Positions 9,460-57,548 of a stretch of DNA of 64,000 nucleotides are shown in pieces (within the stretch, counting starts at the first letter, position 1; each line of letters begins with the position of its first letter). The stretch is from NCBI GenBank assembly GCA_964348135.1, contig CAYGBL010000007.1, forward strand, positions 9,511 to 73,510, read 5' to 3'. The notes beneath the pieces are model-generated. The model was not told the DNA's origin. It saw only the letters and a list, made by a program, of their open reading frames with translations, and made no database searches. The position numbers were made by a program, and so were the translations under genes. Source of the DNA: an uncultured Actinomycetota bacterium (GTDB taxonomy: Bacteria > Actinomycetota > Aquicultoria > JACQXZ01 > CAYGBL01).

Positions 9460-10041
9460 CTAGATAAAGATACTATTAGCGAATAAAGCAATCATGAATG
9501 TTTGAACCGCGCCAGCAAAACCTTGGTATAAATGCTCTGCGCCGAATATTGCAGAGACAATTAAAACGCAAACCAATGGACGCTTCACATATTTATTAAG
9601 AATAGTATAACCGTATCCGCGGAAGATAATCTCTTCTGCCACACCAATAGCAGTAGCGCTAATAACCCACACTGCTGAAAAAGATATTTTGCCTACACCG
9701 ACTTCGGAGAGACGTATAATGGATACAAGAAATTCATGCAGCCATGGAACTACAAAAAATAAAAATACTAACGCTCCCGACCCGATGAGGCAGTCTTTCC
9801 ACCAGGAATAAGATCTAAAACCTATGTATTTCAAAGAATTTCCACCGCGCTTGACAGCCCAAATTATTAAAAAGACAAGGGCGATTTGAATACCTGCCGG
9901 TATGAGCATAGAGCTTACAGGCATCATTCCGGTCTCTGTCTCTTGGCGCAACATTTGGGACGTTGCAAAGTTGCTTACTATCAGGAAAATAGTGAAAAAG
10001 ATAATGTAGAAGTTTAGTTCGTTAAACTTGGATTTTTTCAT
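9460..10041 (-). CDS. CPBP family intramembrane metalloprotease
   Basis: It carries the EEIIFRGY and FGAEHL motifs. Confidence 0.75.
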   Translation of the reverse strand: MKKSKFNELNFYIIFFTIFLIVSNFATSQMLRQETETGMMPVSSMLIPAGIQIALVFLIIWAVKRGGNSLKYIGFRSYSWWKDCLIGSGALVFLFFVVPWLHEFLVSIIRLSEVGVGKISFSAVWVISATAIGVAEEIIFRGYGYTILNKYVKRPLVCVLIVSAIFGAEHLYQGFAGAVQTFMIALFANSIFI

Positions 10042-50895: not shown

Positions 50896-52827
50896 CTATG
50901 CTCTATGCTCCCTAATCATTCCCATCACTTTCGGAAAAGCGTCCATATTAGTATGAGGAAGGAAGAGTGCCGATATGTAGCGATCCATAAAGGCCGGATT
51001 TACGCTCAGCTCTAAATAGGTCATCTTCCTGGCAATCTTTTCCGCCTCTTTCTGCAACGCTCTGGAGAGAGCCACTGCTCTTGTTCCCATAAGTGATCCA
51101 TTTCCGATAAAAATAAATCTTTCGCTGTCTGCTTCTGGAAGCAAACCTATAATCATAGCCTTATCAATCTCAATATAGTTTCCAAAAGCACCTGCAATGA
51201 TAATCCTCTCAATGTCCGGAATCTTTACATCTACGCTTTCAGTTAGTATAGTTATGCCAGCATAAATCGCAGCTTTAGCCCTTATCAGGTTATCCAAGTC
51301 AACCTCGGAAATTGTAATATCTCGGCCAATCCCTGCTTCTTCCGCCCAGACCAGTACATATTCTGCACCATTTTCTCCCATCCGTATCCTTGGAGTCTTT
51401 AGCTCTGTATTGAACTTTCCTTTCTGATTGATAATTCCCGATAAGAACAATTCGGCCACAACGTCGATTAGTCCACTTCCGCAAATTCCTCCTGGCTTAG
51501 ATTGTCCAATAGTAAGAATCATTGGTTCCAGAGTCTCGCGGCTTATTCGGACCTGCTCAATTGCACCTCTGGTTGCCCTTACTCCATTTCTGATTCCTCC
51601 TCCTTCAAAGGCCGGACCAGCTGAGCAAGAGCAGGAGACCAGCCAATCACGGTTGCCCAACACCAGCTCTCCATTAGTCCCAATATCTATATAGAGAGTG
51701 AGTTTGTCTGACTGGAAAACCCCTGAACCAAGAATACCGGCCGTTATATCTCCTCCCACGTAACTTGCAACTCCTGGAAAACAGTAAAGATAAACACTCT
51801 CAAGGAGACTGATTCCCAGATCACGGGCCTTTAATAGTGGAACAGAGCTTATGGTGGGAATATAGGGATCCTCTCTTATATATTTAGGATCAAGCCCGAG
51901 CAGCAAATGTGTCATAGTGGTATTCCCTGCAGCAACCATATAACTAATGTCTTGAAGCTCGATCTGTGCTTTACGAACTAATTCGGATAGCAAGTTATTA
52001 ATAGTAGTTACTGCTGCGCTCTGCAGCTTGAGCAGCCCACCTTCTCTACCGGCAAATATTATCCTGGTAATGACATCCTCTCCATAGGAAATCTGGGCAT
52101 TGTAATTAGAAGCTTTTGCTGTTACTTTACCTTCACTAAGATCCACCAGCTGAGCAATTACCGTTGTTGTCCCTACGTCAACTACTAATGCATAGTTTTT
52201 CTTGGTAGCATTTCCAGGCTCAACCTGTATAAGATATGTCCCGTCGTCAGTATCCAAGAAAGTCAGAGTAATCTGCCAGTCTTTCTCCCGCAAATTAACT
52301 GCTAGATTTTTTAATACTGCAGGATCAATAACAACCTCTTTAAGAGAAATTTGGCGGCTGAGCTCACGGCGCAGCCGCTCCAAGTCACTCAGATTATCTT
52401 CAATGGTCGGTGGCGGAAGCTTCATAAACATTTTCCTGGTGGGAGATAAATGCTTCCACGCGGTTGCCATTACTTCCACGTCTGGAGCTGATAGAAAATG
52501 GCCCCAGGCAGGGATCTGTCTTTCCCTCTCGAGAATTTTACTATCTCCCATTTGGGATTCTACCGGGACTCGAACCTCAACGTCTCCCTGTACGTTGGTT
52601 AGACACGCAAGGTGATATCCCCGTTCAATCTCAGCTTCTGTGAGTTTTCCTCTGCCCAGAACTTCCACTTCACCGGTTTCCACGATTACCCTGCACTTAC
52701 CACAGGTTCCATCTCCTCCGCAGGAAGCATTAATATGAACTTCAGCAATCATAGCCGCTCTTAGGAGATTTTCTCCCTCTACAACCTCTATTTTTATATT
52801 GTCCGGATAAAAAATGACTTCAGGCAT
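50896..52827 (-). CDS. reductive activator of corrinoid protein (RACo/AcsV), 2Fe-2S ferredoxin domain plus ASKHA ATPase
   Basis: 643 aa. The N-terminus has a plant-type ferredoxin motif (CGGDGTCGKCRV). The C-terminal region is an actin-fold ATPase. Confidence 0.75.
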   Translation of the reverse strand: MPEVIFYPDNIKIEVVEGENLLRAAMIAEVHINASCGGDGTCGKCRVIVETGEVEVLGRGKLTEAEIERGYHLACLTNVQGDVEVRVPVESQMGDSKILERERQIPAWGHFLSAPDVEVMATAWKHLSPTRKMFMKLPPPTIEDNLSDLERLRRELSRQISLKEVVIDPAVLKNLAVNLREKDWQITLTFLDTDDGTYLIQVEPGNATKKNYALVVDVGTTTVIAQLVDLSEGKVTAKASNYNAQISYGEDVITRIIFAGREGGLLKLQSAAVTTINNLLSELVRKAQIELQDISYMVAAGNTTMTHLLLGLDPKYIREDPYIPTISSVPLLKARDLGISLLESVYLYCFPGVASYVGGDITAGILGSGVFQSDKLTLYIDIGTNGELVLGNRDWLVSCSCSAGPAFEGGGIRNGVRATRGAIEQVRISRETLEPMILTIGQSKPGGICGSGLIDVVAELFLSGIINQKGKFNTELKTPRIRMGENGAEYVLVWAEEAGIGRDITISEVDLDNLIRAKAAIYAGITILTESVDVKIPDIERIIIAGAFGNYIEIDKAMIIGLLPEADSERFIFIGNGSLMGTRAVALSRALQKEAEKIARKMTYLELSVNPAFMDRYISALFLPHTNMDAFPKVMGMIREHRA

Positions 52828-52828
52828 A

Positions 52829-52928
52829 ATTAGTTATTCGTTATTCGGAATTAGTTATTAGAGCTCATTCCTAATTCCTAATTCCTAATTCCTAATTTCC
52901 AATTTCTAATTCCTAATTTCCAATTCCG
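52829..52928 (+). repeat. intercistronic heptamer-based inverted repeat (fhs/RACo junction)
   Basis: The left arm is AATTAGTTATTCGTTATTCGGAATTAG. The right arm is (TTCCTAA)x4 TTTCCAA TTTCTAA TTCCTAA TTTCCAA. The arms are complementary and would form a long imperfect hairpin. Confidence 0.7.
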
Positions 52929-52931
52929 ACC

Positions 52932-54632
52932 CTAGAACAGACCTACAATCCTCCCTTTGCCGTCAATATCAATCTTTGTTCCCGCAGGGACTGAAGGAAG
53001 ACCTGGCATAGTTCTCATCTCTCCACAAAGAGGATATAGAAAACCTGCACCTACTGACGCTCGTATGTCTCTAATAGGAAGACGGTAGTTTCGAGGTCTT
53101 CCCTTCCAATTAGGCTCGTGGGAAAGTGAGAGATGGGTCTTAGCCATATTTATCGGTAGCTTGTTGAGACCCAATTCAGTATATTGCTTAATCTTTTGTT
53201 CAGCCAAGGGTGCATAATCTACACCATCAGCTCCATATATTTGAGTAGCTATAGTTTCAATCTTTTCCTTGATCGGAGCATTCAGAGAATAGAGGAAATG
53301 GAAGCGATGGGACTTATTGGCAGCTTTGACTACCGCCTTAGCAACATCAGTTCCACCTGCTCCTCCCTTAGCCCATACTTCACTCACTACCGCATCTTCT
53401 GCTCCTGCATCAACCGCTTTCTGCCTTACCAGCTCTATCTCTTCATCTGTATCAGTAACAAAATGGTTTATGGCTACGACTACCGGCAGGCCAAAAATCC
53501 TCATATTCTCAACCTGCTTGGTCAGGTTTTCGCTTCCCAATTCTACTGACTTTAGATCCTGTTTCTTCAATCCCGGATCAAGTGGTCTACCCGGTCTTAC
53601 TGTATATTTTCCACTATGCATCTTTAAAGCCCGTATCGTACATACTACTACTACCGCATCAGGCTTTAGACCACTATAGCGGCACTTTATGTCCATCATC
53701 TTTTCTGCACCGCAGTCAGCTCCAAAACCGCTTTCAGTAACACAATATTCTCCTAATTTAACAGCCATCTGATCCGCCAAAATAGAGTTATTGCCATGAG
53801 CTATGTTTGCAAAGGGACCAGCGTGGACAAATACCGGAGTATGCTCTAAAGTCTGAATTAGATTGGGCTTGATAGCATCCTTAAGAAGAACTGTCATTGC
53901 TCCTGCACATTTTAGGTCTTCAGCCGTAACAGGCTTACCGTCTTTGGTAAAGCCAATAATAATGCGTCCAAGTCTCTTGCGCAGATCCTTCAAGCTGTCG
54001 GTTAAAGCAAGGATAGCCATCACTTCTGAAGCAACAGTTATGTCGAAACCTGACTCTCGAGGTATACCGTTGGCTCGTCCACCCAAACCAACAACTATAT
54101 GCCTTAACGCTCTATCGCTAACATCAACCACACGCGGCCAGAGTATACTTTGCGTATCAATTTTTAACTTATTACCATGAAGGATACTTGCGTCAATAAA
54201 AGCAGATAGGAGGTTGTGGGCAAGACCTACCGCGTGTACATCTCCCGTAAAGTGAAGATTAAAATCCTCCATAGGGATTACCTGGGAGTACCCGCCTCCA
54301 GCTGCACCACCTTTTATACCAAATACCGGCCCCAGCGAGGGTTGTCTAATGGTAGTCACAGTTTTCTTCCTAATTTTGTTTAGGGCCATGGAAAGACCAA
54401 TGGTAGTCACTGTTTTACCTTCTCCCAGGGGAGTAGGTGTTATAGCTGTAACCACAATATATTTACCAGTCTTTTTCTTCTTCAGACGGTTAAGAAGATC
54501 TAAAGAAACTTTTGCTTTATAATTGCCATAAAGCTCCAGTTCGCTCTCCTTAATCCCCAGGTCATTGGCAATTTCAAAAATAGGTTTAATTTTGGAAGCC
54601 TGCGCAATCTCAATATCGCTTTTCATAGCCAT
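52932..54632 (-). CDS. fhs: formate--tetrahydrofolate ligase
   Basis: The ORF-track start at 54674 is upstream of the RBS. The likely start is ATG 54632, giving MAMKSDIEIAQ, after AAGGAAAG. The Fhs pattern is conserved along the full length. Confidence 0.9.
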   Translation of the reverse strand: MAMKSDIEIAQASKIKPIFEIANDLGIKESELELYGNYKAKVSLDLLNRLKKKKTGKYIVVTAITPTPLGEGKTVTTIGLSMALNKIRKKTVTTIRQPSLGPVFGIKGGAAGGGYSQVIPMEDFNLHFTGDVHAVGLAHNLLSAFIDASILHGNKLKIDTQSILWPRVVDVSDRALRHIVVGLGGRANGIPRESGFDITVASEVMAILALTDSLKDLRKRLGRIIIGFTKDGKPVTAEDLKCAGAMTVLLKDAIKPNLIQTLEHTPVFVHAGPFANIAHGNNSILADQMAVKLGEYCVTESGFGADCGAEKMMDIKCRYSGLKPDAVVVVCTIRALKMHSGKYTVRPGRPLDPGLKKQDLKSVELGSENLTKQVENMRIFGLPVVVAINHFVTDTDEEIELVRQKAVDAGAEDAVVSEVWAKGGAGGTDVAKAVVKAANKSHRFHFLYSLNAPIKEKIETIATQIYGADGVDYAPLAEQKIKQYTELGLNKLPINMAKTHLSLSHEPNWKGRPRNYRLPIRDIRASVGAGFLYPLCGEMRTMPGLPSVPAGTKIDIDGKGRIVGLF

Positions 54633-55142
54633 TCTTCTTTCCTTTCTCTTCGACCGACATAAGATATGCCTCAACTATTTTATAGTTACATCTTAAGTTT
54701 TTCAGGTCAAAAACCGCGATCTGCTCTCTTATTAGAATCTATTTAAGTCCGAAAAAAGATTGAGTTGAAGAACTATACCATGTTACGCAGAAACGAACAT
54801 TTCCAATACAAAAATCATAAAAAAGCAGATGTCTGCCGTCTATGCTGAAACAGGCAGGTACTACCAACGACTTCCTAATTCCTATTCTAACTGGTTAGCA
54901 AATCAACAGCTTCTAATATTAATAGGCTCTGTGCAAAAGTGCACAATCTTAAAAAAAATAATACCTTCTTAACTATGAAAATTAAATTAAAGAAGTAGAA
55001 ACTAGCTAAATTATGAAAAATAACCAAACTCCTAAAGTGAAATCATTATAATATACTAAAAGTGTTTGACAACCCGCATAAGATAAATGGCTTTTATGGC
55101 ATTTGAACGGCATTTTGTACCATTTATATGCAGACAAATAAA

Positions 55143-55180
55143 AGGAGCTGGTATCGAGTTCCTGCCAGCTCCTTCTTTGC
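55143..55180 (-). terminator. intrinsic terminator after the NIL-ferredoxin gene
   Basis: On the minus strand the hairpin AAGGAGCUGG-caggaacucgauac-CCAGCUCCUU is followed by UUAUUUGU. Confidence 0.6.
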
Positions 55181-55204: not shown

Positions 55205-55612
55205 CTAGAACAAGACGCCGATTACTCTTACAGGACAAGCATTTACACATAACTCGCAGAGAATACATTCGTCCTTATCAAAGCGTAACTTCCAGTTCTC
55301 GATATTCATAGTAAGAGCATCAGTCGGGCACACAGCTGTACAGGCGCCGCAGTCAATACATCCTTTCTCGTCAAGTTTTATGTCTCTAGCTGCCTCCTGA
55401 ACATCTACATTCTGGCTACGCAGGTAATCCAGCCCTTTTTTTATCTTTTCCTGCGGACCATCGAGTTCCAATACCATATGGCCGGTTTCTTCTTCACGAA
55501 TCTCAGCGCGTAGAATATTTGTAATCAAATCATAATCCTTCACCAGATGATAGGTTATAGGTTGAGCAACCTGCTCAGGTGGAAAGGTTAAGACTATTTT
55601 TTTTCTGGCCAT
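55205..55612 (-). CDS. NIL-domain 2x[4Fe-4S] ferredoxin (partner of DUF39 in sulfide-dependent homocysteine synthesis)
   Basis: 135 aa. The N-terminus is a NIL domain. The C-terminus reads CIDCGACTAVCP...CILCELCVNACP. Confidence 0.7.
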   Translation of the reverse strand: MARKKIVLTFPPEQVAQPITYHLVKDYDLITNILRAEIREEETGHMVLELDGPQEKIKKGLDYLRSQNVDVQEAARDIKLDEKGCIDCGACTAVCPTDALTMNIENWKLRFDKDECILCELCVNACPVRVIGVLF

Positions 55613-56779
55613 TTATATCTCCTCCTCTGTTTTGATCTCCAAAGGCTTAAAGACCTGTTCTTGTGAAAGATAAGCGATGGGCTCTTGAAGCAGAAACTTA
55701 CCTTGGCCAATCCACTCTTTGAGAATCCCTGCAATCTCTTTTGCTCTGGCATAACTGGACAGCGGAGCCGTCGGTACTTCTTTGCCGTTGATAGTAATCT
55801 TCCCACTCCGAAGTTCCTGATAGCTGACCTTCCCCAAAGCAGGTTTTGCTCGTTGTGGGATACTATAATCAATTATCGTAGTGTGTATATCTTCATCGCC
55901 TACACTTACATGTTCCGCTATCTCCTCATTGAGGATTGGAATGGGGATTCCTACACCTACATATATTGTAGTTCCGTAGCGATAGAACGTTGCCCCACGT
56001 ATAAAACCTGCGCTCATTTGTTTCAAGTCCCCAATCAAAGCTAGAGTTCCTGCGGGGGCAACTGGTATACCTTTCTCATTTCTTCGCTGCTTGGGATTAT
56101 GTTGGGTTCCTTCCCAGGCAACATACCCCACCGTTCCTCCTAAGAATATCCGCGTTCCTATACCGATAGTCTTATAAAAGGGGTCTTTTAAGAGTGGATT
56201 AAGTTGCGAAGCACTGCAGTACGTAGCATTCCCCAGTCTGGGCAAGAGAGTTCCCATATATGTATGGATAGTACGGTTAGAAGTATTTACAGCAACTGCG
56301 TAATTCTGATAGCAATTGCGGGGATTAAAAAGGTACGCCTGATTCACACTATCTTTAGTCACAAATGTTTCAATCTCTTTACGGGGATAACAATCCGTAC
56401 CGTAAGCAGTGGATTTCAATTTTACCGGTTTACCATTAATCAGATCCTCAATTACATGACCTCCACCGTAGTCAAAACCTCTAGTTTCTGACAGCTCAGT
56501 TGCTCCAATGTATACATCTACTGCCGCTAATCCTGCATAGCTCAGTACATCATTCAGCCATACTTTAGTCATTTTAATAGGCGGATCAGCGTGTCCGAAG
56601 TTAATAAAAGCCCCTGATGAACACATGGGACCAAAAGTTGCAGCAGTTACCACATCCACCTCTTGAGCAACTTTCTTTACACCTTTTTCTTTTGCTAATT
56701 TTACAATTTCTTCAGCAGTAACTACTACTACTTGACCTTTCTTAATTTTTTCATTTATCTCTTCATAAGTTTTAGCCAT
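55613..56779 (-). CDS. DUF39/COG1900 homocysteine biosynthesis protein
   Basis: 388 aa. The N-terminus (TYEEINEKIKKGQVVVVTAEE) and the overall size match the COG1900 family. It is translationally coupled to the NIL-ferredoxin gene. Confidence 0.65.
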   Translation of the reverse strand: MAKTYEEINEKIKKGQVVVVTAEEIVKLAKEKGVKKVAQEVDVVTAATFGPMCSSGAFINFGHADPPIKMTKVWLNDVLSYAGLAAVDVYIGATELSETRGFDYGGGHVIEDLINGKPVKLKSTAYGTDCYPRKEIETFVTKDSVNQAYLFNPRNCYQNYAVAVNTSNRTIHTYMGTLLPRLGNATYCSASQLNPLLKDPFYKTIGIGTRIFLGGTVGYVAWEGTQHNPKQRRNEKGIPVAPAGTLALIGDLKQMSAGFIRGATFYRYGTTIYVGVGIPIPILNEEIAEHVSVGDEDIHTTIIDYSIPQRAKPALGKVSYQELRSGKITINGKEVPTAPLSSYARAKEIAGILKEWIGQGKFLLQEPIAYLSQEQVFKPLEIKTEEEI

Positions 56780-56954
56780 CTTTACACCTCCTATATTAGT
56801 TCACGGTTCACGGTTAACGGCTCACAACCGTCAGTTGACAGTTCTCAGTTCTGCATGAATATAATTCCTCCGACCCCACTATATAATATGTGTCGCATTG
56901 TTTCTCCAATATTAGTTCACGGTTCACAACCGTCAGTTGACAGTCTTCGAGACC

Positions 56955-57335
56955 AATAAAAAACCTCTCATCCTAATGGGACGAGAGGTAAAATTCGTGG
57001 TACCACCCAATTTCGCAAGTGCCTTACAGCATCCAGCCTCGCTGAGTACGCCCCGCCCTTGGCGGGAATATACTCTTTCCTTTTAATAACGGAGGATTCC
57101 GTCTGGATCTACTCCTGAGCACTTACTTTACTGCAAAGTCGGAGTTTGACTGACACTTGGAAACTTTCCAAGTTAGGTCCCACCAAGAACTCTGCAGTAA
57201 AGTAAGTGCTCGGTTTCTTCCAGAGCCTCAGGGATCATGTTCAGTTTGCATTTCCCGCGCCGGTTCTCAGCTATCCCGGCTCTCTGCCGCAGTACTCAAC
57301 AAACCTACTCTTTCCCGTCATTGCAAATATATATG
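56955..57335 (-). ncRNA. T-box riboswitch leader (putatively tRNA-Met responsive) upstream of the DUF39/NIL-ferredoxin operon
   Basis: The minus strand contains the T-box sequence AAAUUGGGUGGUACCACGA with a UGGU bulge. The antiterminator is GGG[UGGUACC]ACGA...UCGUCCC. It overlaps a terminator ACCUCUCGUCC-cauua-GGAUGAGAGGU followed by U7 (plus-strand 56955..56990). An F-box (CCGUUA) lies upstream. A Stem III candidate CCCGCC-aag-GGCGGG, a long Stem II hairpin with a 19-bp perfect stem, and a Stem I hairpin containing AUG triplets are also present. Confidence 0.75.
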
Positions 57336-57342
57336 CTCCAGA

Positions 57343-57372
57343 AATATACCTTAAAATCTATCCTGCTGTCAA
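57343..57372 (-). promoter_or_regulatory. sigma70-like promoter for the T-box leader
   Basis: On the minus strand TTGACA (57372..57367) is followed by an 18-nt spacer and TATATT (57348..57343). Confidence 0.5.
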
Positions 57373-57548
57373 CTTTTTAATAAGTACCTACCACTCATAA
57401 ATAAAGTAGAACAAATTTTTACGTGTGTGGCATTATTTCTGTAAGATCCAAATTGACACAATTTCAAACCAGGTATTCTATTAATATTTTAAAGCTTGGA
57501 GATTTTGAAAGAGAGCAGAGGGATAAATATCCCTCTGCTCTTTAATAC

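Follow-up and report, generated by a model that had tools for sequence, protein, structure and literature searches.

A probable tRNA-Met T-box riboswitch at the head of a DUF39/NIL-ferredoxin homocysteine operon in an uncultured Actinomycetota bacterium

On the minus strand of contig CAYGBL010000007.1 from an uncultured Actinomycetota bacterium (assembly GCA_964348135.1), two genes of homocysteine synthesis, HcyBio (DUF39/COG1900) and a NIL-ferredoxin gene, lie behind a gap of about 500 bp, which raises the question of what this gap contains and how it might govern the genes that follow. An earlier note on this DNA had proposed a T-box riboswitch, a leader RNA that senses tRNA. We analyzed a stretch of 64,000 nucleotides (positions 9,511 to 73,510 of the contig, hereafter the window), and found each of the proposed T-box hallmarks on its minus strand (Table 1). 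Judged by its sequence, the element is very probably a genuine, canonical class-I transcriptional T-box riboswitch for tRNA-Met, which heads an operon of a small open reading frame (ORF), HcyBio and the NIL-ferredoxin gene.

The T-box leader and its specifier

We searched the leader region with the Rfam T-box covariance model RF00230 in a permissive scan, and obtained a significant match over the full length of the model (90.0 bits, E 4.1e-20), below the 93-bit gathering score of the family. The conserved core motifs were all intact and were aligned with high posterior probability, and the Stem I candidate with its AUG, the long Stem II, Stem III and the F-box were all located within this alignment. 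The leader measures about 378 nt up to its terminator, and about 557 nt separate the presumed start from the HcyBio ATG. Matches to mir-452, SQ1002, sraA, the L20 leader and other Rfam families were rejected as chance, because their scores were far below the respective cut-offs; the sub-threshold matches other than the T-box coincide with the long hairpin of Stem II or with the terminator hairpin of the upstream gene.

When folded alone, Stem I adopted the canonical arrangement with the same helices as the model, namely a basal helix with the GA/K-turn motif (UGA...GA), a GGGA/UCCC helix, the specifier loop, a GGUUUG/CAAACU helix, the AG bulge AGAGA (57285-57281) and the distal loop. The specifier loop has AAGAGUA on its 5' side and GAACAUGA on its 3' side, with the S-turn formed by AGUA and GAA. 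In GAAC-AUG-A (57242-57235), the AUG stands at the 3' end of the loop and is followed by a purine.

We compared this leader with those of other HcyBio loci, comprising 80 loci from species-representative genomes, 80 from metagenomes and nine from close relatives; loci are cited below by their numbers (L001 and so on), and the frequencies of T-box and SAM-I (S-adenosylmethionine) riboswitches were counted over 164 of the HcyBio loci. RNAalifold applied to 21 distinct Stem I sequences recovered the structure, with compensatory changes in 15 of the 21 predicted pairs. In an explicit count of the Stem I pairs over 21 leaders, 96.8% of the cells were paired, compared with 37-52% when the partners were slid; 15 of 18 pairs had changed on both sides, and none of 500 shuffles performed equally well. 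The assignment as a T-box is thus supported by covariation in 21 orthologous leaders, and the RNA architecture, with its conservation and covariation, is established.

Covariation in the helices that flank the specifier loop fixes the loop and puts the AUG at positions 2-4 from its 3' end, the canonical +0 frame of TBDB (PMC7778990). The AUG was invariant in the related leaders (21/21), and every leader with a readable loop contained GAA-(C/U/none)-AUG-N on the 3' side of that loop, the base after AUG being A, G, C or U and usually a purine. The UGGU bulge was present in all of the approximately 27 T-box loci found among the 164. The invariance of GAA-N-AUG and of UGGU across related leaders identifies the specifier as that for Met, which agrees with the amino acid originally proposed. 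Bacterial tRNA-Met and tRNA-fMet carry the anticodon CAU and the discriminator base A73, which fit the AUG specifier and the UGGU bulge, respectively.

Downstream of Stem II, the loop UCCU of the Stem IIA/B hairpin can pair with AGGA located 6 nt past the F-box to form a pseudoknot. Over 23 leaders, the pairing of each loop with its own downstream sequence was better than that with permuted partners (13 of 5000 permutations reached the mean), which lends modest support to this interaction.

The switch itself is formed by two folds that exclude each other, as UCGUCC is common to the antiterminator 3' strand (UCGUCCCA, 56984-56977) and the terminator 5' strand. This sharing had been predicted correctly, while the U tract, previously described as U7, consists of six U (56963..56958) followed by A-UU. 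The computed folding energy was -4.9 kcal/mol for the antiterminator alone and -18.3 kcal/mol (z = -7.3) for the terminator with its GC-rich 11-bp stem. A weak antiterminator opposed to a strong terminator is the expected design, in which, according to these energies, termination would be the default and read-through would occur only when a tRNA acceptor end stabilizes the bulge.

The promoter TTGACA-18-TATATT was also recovered by the promoter scan, matching 11 of 12 consensus positions and ending approximately 12 nt before the T-box match begins (57330). Promoter-like matches were not enriched in the region (2 found, 2.0 expected), and this promoter is credible on account of its quality and position, not of match frequency.

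From this arrangement we infer that transcription would start at TTGACA-18-TATATT and that the leader would respond to tRNA-Met, be it the initiator or the elongator, which Stem I would bind through the AUG specifier. The free NCCA end of an uncharged tRNA, with discriminator A, would pair with the UGGU bulge and stabilize the weak antiterminator, and polymerase would enter the operon, the first cistron of which would be a conserved ORF of 17 codons. When the tRNA is charged, the strong terminator would form and transcription would halt at the U tract. A shortage of methionine would thereby yield more of the enzyme pair that turns aspartate semialdehyde and sulfide into homocysteine.

Table 1. 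Coordinates of the leader, the operon and associated features in the window, and of the second mini-ORF in related loci
Feature	Position	Strand	Details
Sigma-70-type promoter TTGACA-18-TATATT	57343..57372	minus	-35 at 57372-57367, -10 at 57348-57343; function suggested by position
T-box leader	56974..57330	minus	full-length RF00230 match, model positions 1-219
Stem I	57225..57324	minus	RF00230 alignment, single-sequence fold, covariation
Specifier codon AUG (Met)	57236..57238	minus	RF00230 alignment; followed by purine A57235
Stem II	57103..57223	minus	CUGGA AGAAA ... GGAGUAGA UCCAG; unusually long distal hairpin
Stem II distal hairpin	57117-57211	minus	arms 57211-57190 and 57138-57117, about 95 nt
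Stem IIA/B hairpin and F-box CCGUUA	57087..57102	minus	F-box at 57092-57087; RF00230 alignment
Stem III	57044..57075	minus	own fold -23.4 kcal/mol, z = -2.1; placed as in the RF00230 model
T-box sequence AAAUUGGGUGGUACCACGA	57013..56995	minus	UGGU at 57005..57002
Antiterminator	56977..57013	minus	UGGG 57009-57006, bulge UGGUACC 57005-56999, ACGA 56998-56995
Intrinsic terminator and U6-A-UU tract	56955..56989	minus	11-bp stem 56989-56963
Local direct duplication	56788..56943	minus	copy 1 at 56943-56904, before the small ORF; copy 2 at 56841-56788, before HcyBio
Conserved small ORF MRHILYSGVGGIIFMQN	56845..56898	minus	17 codons and stop; Shine-Dalgarno sequence GGAG 5 nt upstream
HcyBio (DUF39/COG1900) gene	55613..56779	minus	PF01837, 524.7 bits, residues 17-364; 388 aa
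NIL-domain / 2x[4Fe-4S] ferredoxin gene	55205..55612	minus	NIL 65.5 bits and Fer4 families; 135 aa
Putative operon-end terminator	55136..55174	minus	hairpin AAGGAGCUGG / CCAGCUCCUU, 13-nt loop, then UUAUUU; read from sequence
fhs promoter TTGTCA-16-TATAAT	55072..55045	minus	promoter scan
Second mini-ORF	L001 514-615; L083 522-623; L084 3872-3961; L085 2366-2467
Second mini-ORF	L088 2030-2125; L091 1942-2037; L168 139-240

The homocysteine operon and its spacer

The identities of the two controlled genes were confirmed by their family matches (Table 1). The HcyBio protein lacks a CBS domain and is highly conserved, its homologues being 59-84% identical, and its gene abuts that of the NIL-ferredoxin (55613 / 55612). 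Both families are required for the synthesis of homocysteine and methionine in Desulfovibrio vulgaris (PMC5764234, PMC12068725), and the homologues MA1821/MA1822 have been implicated genetically in homocysteine synthesis in Methanosarcina (PMC5764234, PMC4045070, PMC12068725). After the NIL-ferredoxin gene, a hairpin with a U-run is followed by a new promoter, which makes the T-box unit a short, self-contained operon. The terminator scan was limited to loops of at most 8 nt and thus missed the operon-end hairpin. The segment from the T-box leader to the fhs promoter contains no COG2122 gene.

On the downstream side, the genes for formate-tetrahydrofolate ligase (fhs) and the corrinoid activator AcsV follow from 50896-54674 (minus strand) onward under their own strong promoter, and locus L081 has the same order. 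The homocysteine operon thus heads an apparent Wood-Ljungdahl cluster, which suggests an acetogen-like host. On the upstream side, a hairpin, GAGCAGAGGGA-UAUUUAU-CCCUCUGCUC, is located at 57505-57545 (minus strand), just past the stop codon of a gene for a 753-aa protein with a weak fn3 match. This hairpin, which gave spurious weak Rfam matches (sraA, SQ1002), probably ends the transcription of the 753-aa gene and insulates the T-box promoter.

The earlier note had held that the 500-bp gap was regulatory RNA and not a missing gene. This holds in part, since the 180 nt that separate the terminator from the HcyBio ATG contain the conserved 17-codon ORF. It has the form of an upstream ORF, being short, preceded by a ribosome-binding site and located at a conserved position within the 5' leader. 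We found it in approximately 13 loci with a T-box and HcyBio, each time between the T-box terminator and HcyBio: its carriers include L081 (MQYILYSGVGGIIYMR), L165, L082-L087, L040 and L001, and a variant (..CGGLMGM..) occurs in L088 and L091. When the motif was searched over the 164 loci on both strands with Shine-Dalgarno and size filters, all matches were on the sense strand of T-box-to-HcyBio spacers. None of the sampled loci with a SAM-I motif contained the ORF, nor did the T-box loci with short spacers (L006, L007, L068, L167 and others).

The peptide has the core [S/T/A]-x-G-G-[I/V/L]-[I/V/M]-[Y/F/S/G]-M, with Met at residue 14-15 of the minimal ORFs and tails of varying length. Mean column entropies at codon positions 1, 2 and 3 were 0.63, 0.55 and 1.34, respectively, and the low values at the first two positions together with the high value at the third indicate conservation at the amino acid level. 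The serine alternates between AGY and TCN codons across loci, and the cores of the window and L081 peptides differ by four synonymous and no non-synonymous changes.

In some relatives, the peptide ORF and HcyBio are separated by a second mini-ORF of 29-33 aa, which encodes a four-cysteine zinc-ribbon or rubredoxin-like sequence (M-I-C-P-x-C-G-E-W...C-x-x-C). It was found in six distinct loci and in L168, where the available 271 nt of upstream sequence would not reach a T-box; the window has no such ORF. In L083, the peptide and zinc-ribbon ORFs are fused in frame. A search of the small peptides and zinc-ribbon mini-proteins against Pfam and NCBIfam yielded no family, with only weak sub-threshold matches to Pfam zinc ribbons for the second mini-ORF.

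The small ORF could encode a leader peptide or a small subunit. A classical attenuation peptide is unlikely, as the ORF contains only a single internal Met codon, and the spacer has neither a significant RNA fold nor a second terminator. It is conceivable, though we consider it rather doubtful, that the ORF encodes a cis-acting nascent regulatory peptide that would provide a second, translation-level checkpoint on the T-box operon; such a peptide could sense methionine, SAM or homocysteine, or could couple to HcyBio translation. Less exotically, the product could be a micro-subunit of the DUF39 route to homocysteine that has escaped recognition, perhaps left over from a small zinc-ribbon protein, an idea that derives from the in-frame fusion in L083. 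In the literature searched, we found no T-box paired with a conserved leader peptide.

The spacer also contains a local direct duplication, the pieces of which are 93-96% identical, with a period of 102-116 nt and about 40-55 nt per copy. Both copies include a small hairpin, ACGGUU-GUG-AACCGU, and have a Shine-Dalgarno sequence at their end. The duplication occurs once in the window, and relatives have no more of it than a loose AAC(C/T)GUCAA motif. No second structured RNA was detected between the terminator and the ATG, where the fold was not significant (z = -0.6) and no Rfam match occurred.

Alternative readings of the leader

Some observations weigh against a functional tRNA-Met switch in front of HcyBio. 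The RF00230 score is 3 bits under the curated gathering cut-off; a Stem II hairpin of this length was seen in the window alone among the sampled leaders, the Stem II of relatives being short; a promoter-like site in the spacer, cTGACg-16-TAATAT, was read by eye (8/12, below the scan threshold); and no tRNA genes occur in the window and no tRNA-Met in loci L001-L120. The discriminator match is that expected from the A73 of bacterial tRNA-Met and tRNA-fMet. We considered three other explanations in the light of these points.

The first of them is that the T-box mainly controls the small ORF, while most transcripts of HcyBio and the NIL-ferredoxin gene start at a promoter of their own in the 180-nt spacer, perhaps inside the duplication. 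The length of the spacer, the placement of a duplicated block before both ORFs and the weak -35/-10-like site just mentioned are all compatible with this explanation. However, the scan of the spacer returned no sigma-70-like promoter above its threshold, no second terminator was found between the small ORF and HcyBio, and the duplication is not conserved in relatives. Moreover, in other lineages 50-150 nt free of any ORF separate the same T-box from HcyBio, which shows that HcyBio is the conserved target. We therefore regard a separate spacer promoter as unlikely to be the principal source of HcyBio transcripts.

A second explanation is that the leader is a decaying relic that no longer switches, for instance because the Stem II hairpin disrupts it, and that HcyBio is constitutive or obeys another signal. 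The sub-threshold score and the restriction of the approximately 95-nt hairpin to the window would both be expected of such a relic. A scan of the whole window at Rfam gathering thresholds gave zero matches, but the T-box is missing from it solely on account of the curated cut-off of 93 bits, and the shortfall coincides with two insertions in the alignment, one of 105 nt within Stem II and one of 53 nt in the Stem III region. Against decay, every conserved core motif and the terminator/antiterminator pair are intact, and the S-turn motifs (AGAAA / GGAGUAGA) are undisturbed by the insertion, which extends Stem II distally. Orthologous leaders scored from 58 to 121 bits against RF00230, on both sides of the cut-off; 9 of 19 scored HcyBio-linked T-box loci fell under 93 bits because of linker insertions, and several of the leaders with other insertions are below the cut-off while all have AUG and UGGU. 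A functional Met T-box of Staphylococcus aureus tolerates a linker insertion of 150 nt (PMC7913692). Taken together, these findings make a relic very improbable.

The hairpin itself has near-perfect 23-bp arms, and Stem II as a whole was predicted to be highly stable (-58.5 kcal/mol, z = -7.5). A second copy of its arm, as might be left by a repeated mobile element, was not found within the window. The hairpin may have been acquired by insertion, or may serve as a signal for RNA processing or stability.

The third explanation, that the specifier is the overlapping CAU (His) in GAACAUGA and the leader responds to histidine, draws on the near invariance of C-A-U-G (C in 20/21 leaders) and on the invariant purine G that would then follow the codon, whereas the base after AUG varies, but it is the least credible of the three, since only AUG is universal (U replaces C in L086, and the base is absent in L001) and occupies the canonical frame, since homocysteine is the product of the controlled genes and a SAM riboswitch takes the place of this leader in other loci, and since UGGU calls for discriminator A. 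Bacterial tRNA-His carries C73. In addition, His T-boxes use CAC in 95% of cases (PMC7778990).

Distribution of RNA control and comparison with known systems

The tRNA-Met T-box remains the best explanation of the leader, and we determined how often such control recurs before HcyBio. A T-box was found within 700 nt upstream of the gene in approximately 27 of the 164 loci (regular expression and Rfam combined), and a SAM-I motif within 400 nt upstream in approximately 48; in one batch of 20 loci, Rfam identified a SAM-I riboswitch upstream of HcyBio in 13. The four close relatives that were fetched first (L081-L084) all contained a T-box at the same position (87-111 bits). Among these, L081 is the closest, with a protein 84% identical and a locus syntenic with fhs/acsV, while the proteins of L082-L084 are 75-77% identical. 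T-boxes before HcyBio were also found in metagenome-assembled genomes (MAGs) of Actinomycetota and Coriobacteriia and in other Clostridia-like MAGs. The occurrence of a SAM-I riboswitch at the same gene position in many other lineages marks this position as a methionine-responsive control point, and the combined frequencies indicate that RNA control of the homocysteine operon is widespread. The earlier note was right to regard this tRNA-sensing control as that of a Met T-box; the case is not a one-off.

Some loci showed further arrangements. Two tandem SAM-I core motifs lie upstream of HcyBio in L035 (about 2377-2700), L052, L122 and L128, and three in L042 (regular expression only), which suggests that some lineages may use tandem SAM riboswitches. 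In L072, a SAM-I riboswitch (1987-2094, 101 bits) directly precedes HcyBio, and a T-box (170-398, 127 bits) is located approximately 1.8 kb upstream. L001 and L002, from a single MAG (UBA2594), represent two copies of HcyBio, each 75% identical to the window protein: the L001 copy has a leader with the T-box, the peptide and the zinc ribbon, and the L002 copy has no recognizable T-box or SAM-I motif.

In the literature searched, no T-box or other riboswitch was linked to DUF39/COG1900, and an earlier mention is possible. The element is a riboswitch of an ordinary class in a recurrent and apparently undescribed gene context, and would not surprise a specialist. From regulation, and independently of genetics, it nevertheless yields evidence that in anaerobic Bacillota and Actinomycetota the DUF39/NIL-ferredoxin pair is part of methionine metabolism, and it shows that lineages differ in placing the same operon under a Met-tRNA sensor or a SAM sensor. 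It would also explain how a bacterial HcyBio without a CBS domain can still be feedback-controlled, and indicates that the Rfam gathering cut-off misses genuine Met T-boxes with enlarged linkers. The part most deserving of follow-up is the mini-ORF, which may encode either a leader peptide acting in concert with the T-box or a small, hitherto unrecognized member of the homocysteine pathway.

Met T-box leaders have been described for metICFE-mdh of S. aureus (PMC3771891, PMC7913692), for met genes of Lactobacillales (PMC2494555) and for a met transporter of Lactococcus lactis (PMC7058034). The leader described here is similar to these T-boxes of Bacillota in its riboswitch class, in its AUG specifier and in the predicted logic, whereby uncharged tRNA-Met would lead to antitermination and switch on genes of methionine supply. 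It differs from them in its target, which is the sulfide-dependent DUF39/NIL-ferredoxin route to homocysteine and not metICFE or transporters, and in the conserved small ORF after the terminator. In comparison with the S. aureus met leader, both are enlarged by a linker insertion, but the S-turn of Stem II is kept here and lacking there.

The SAM-I (S-box) riboswitches upstream of HcyBio occupy the same position before the same operon and likewise act by transcription attenuation; however, their ligand is SAM, as opposed to the charging of tRNA-Met, and the small ORF is absent from the SAM-I loci sampled. With regard to that ORF, riboswitch leaders containing an upstream ORF are known from metA of Sinorhizobium meliloti, with a SAM-II riboswitch (PMC9373788), and from metE of Mycobacterium tuberculosis, with a B12 riboswitch (PMC11260477). 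As in those leaders, a short ORF lies here between a riboswitch and a gene of the methionine pathway, but the riboswitch is a T-box, any regulatory role of the ORF is hypothetical, and the peptide core has no counterpart in Pfam or NCBIfam.

Finally, the enzyme pair resembles the L-aspartate semialdehyde sulfurtransferase of methanogens (MA1821/MA1822) and its counterpart in Desulfovibrio, in which the same two protein families stand side by side. The archaeal enzyme has a SAM-sensing CBS domain (PMC4045070), whereas for the CBS-less HcyBio examined here, control would be exerted at the RNA level instead.

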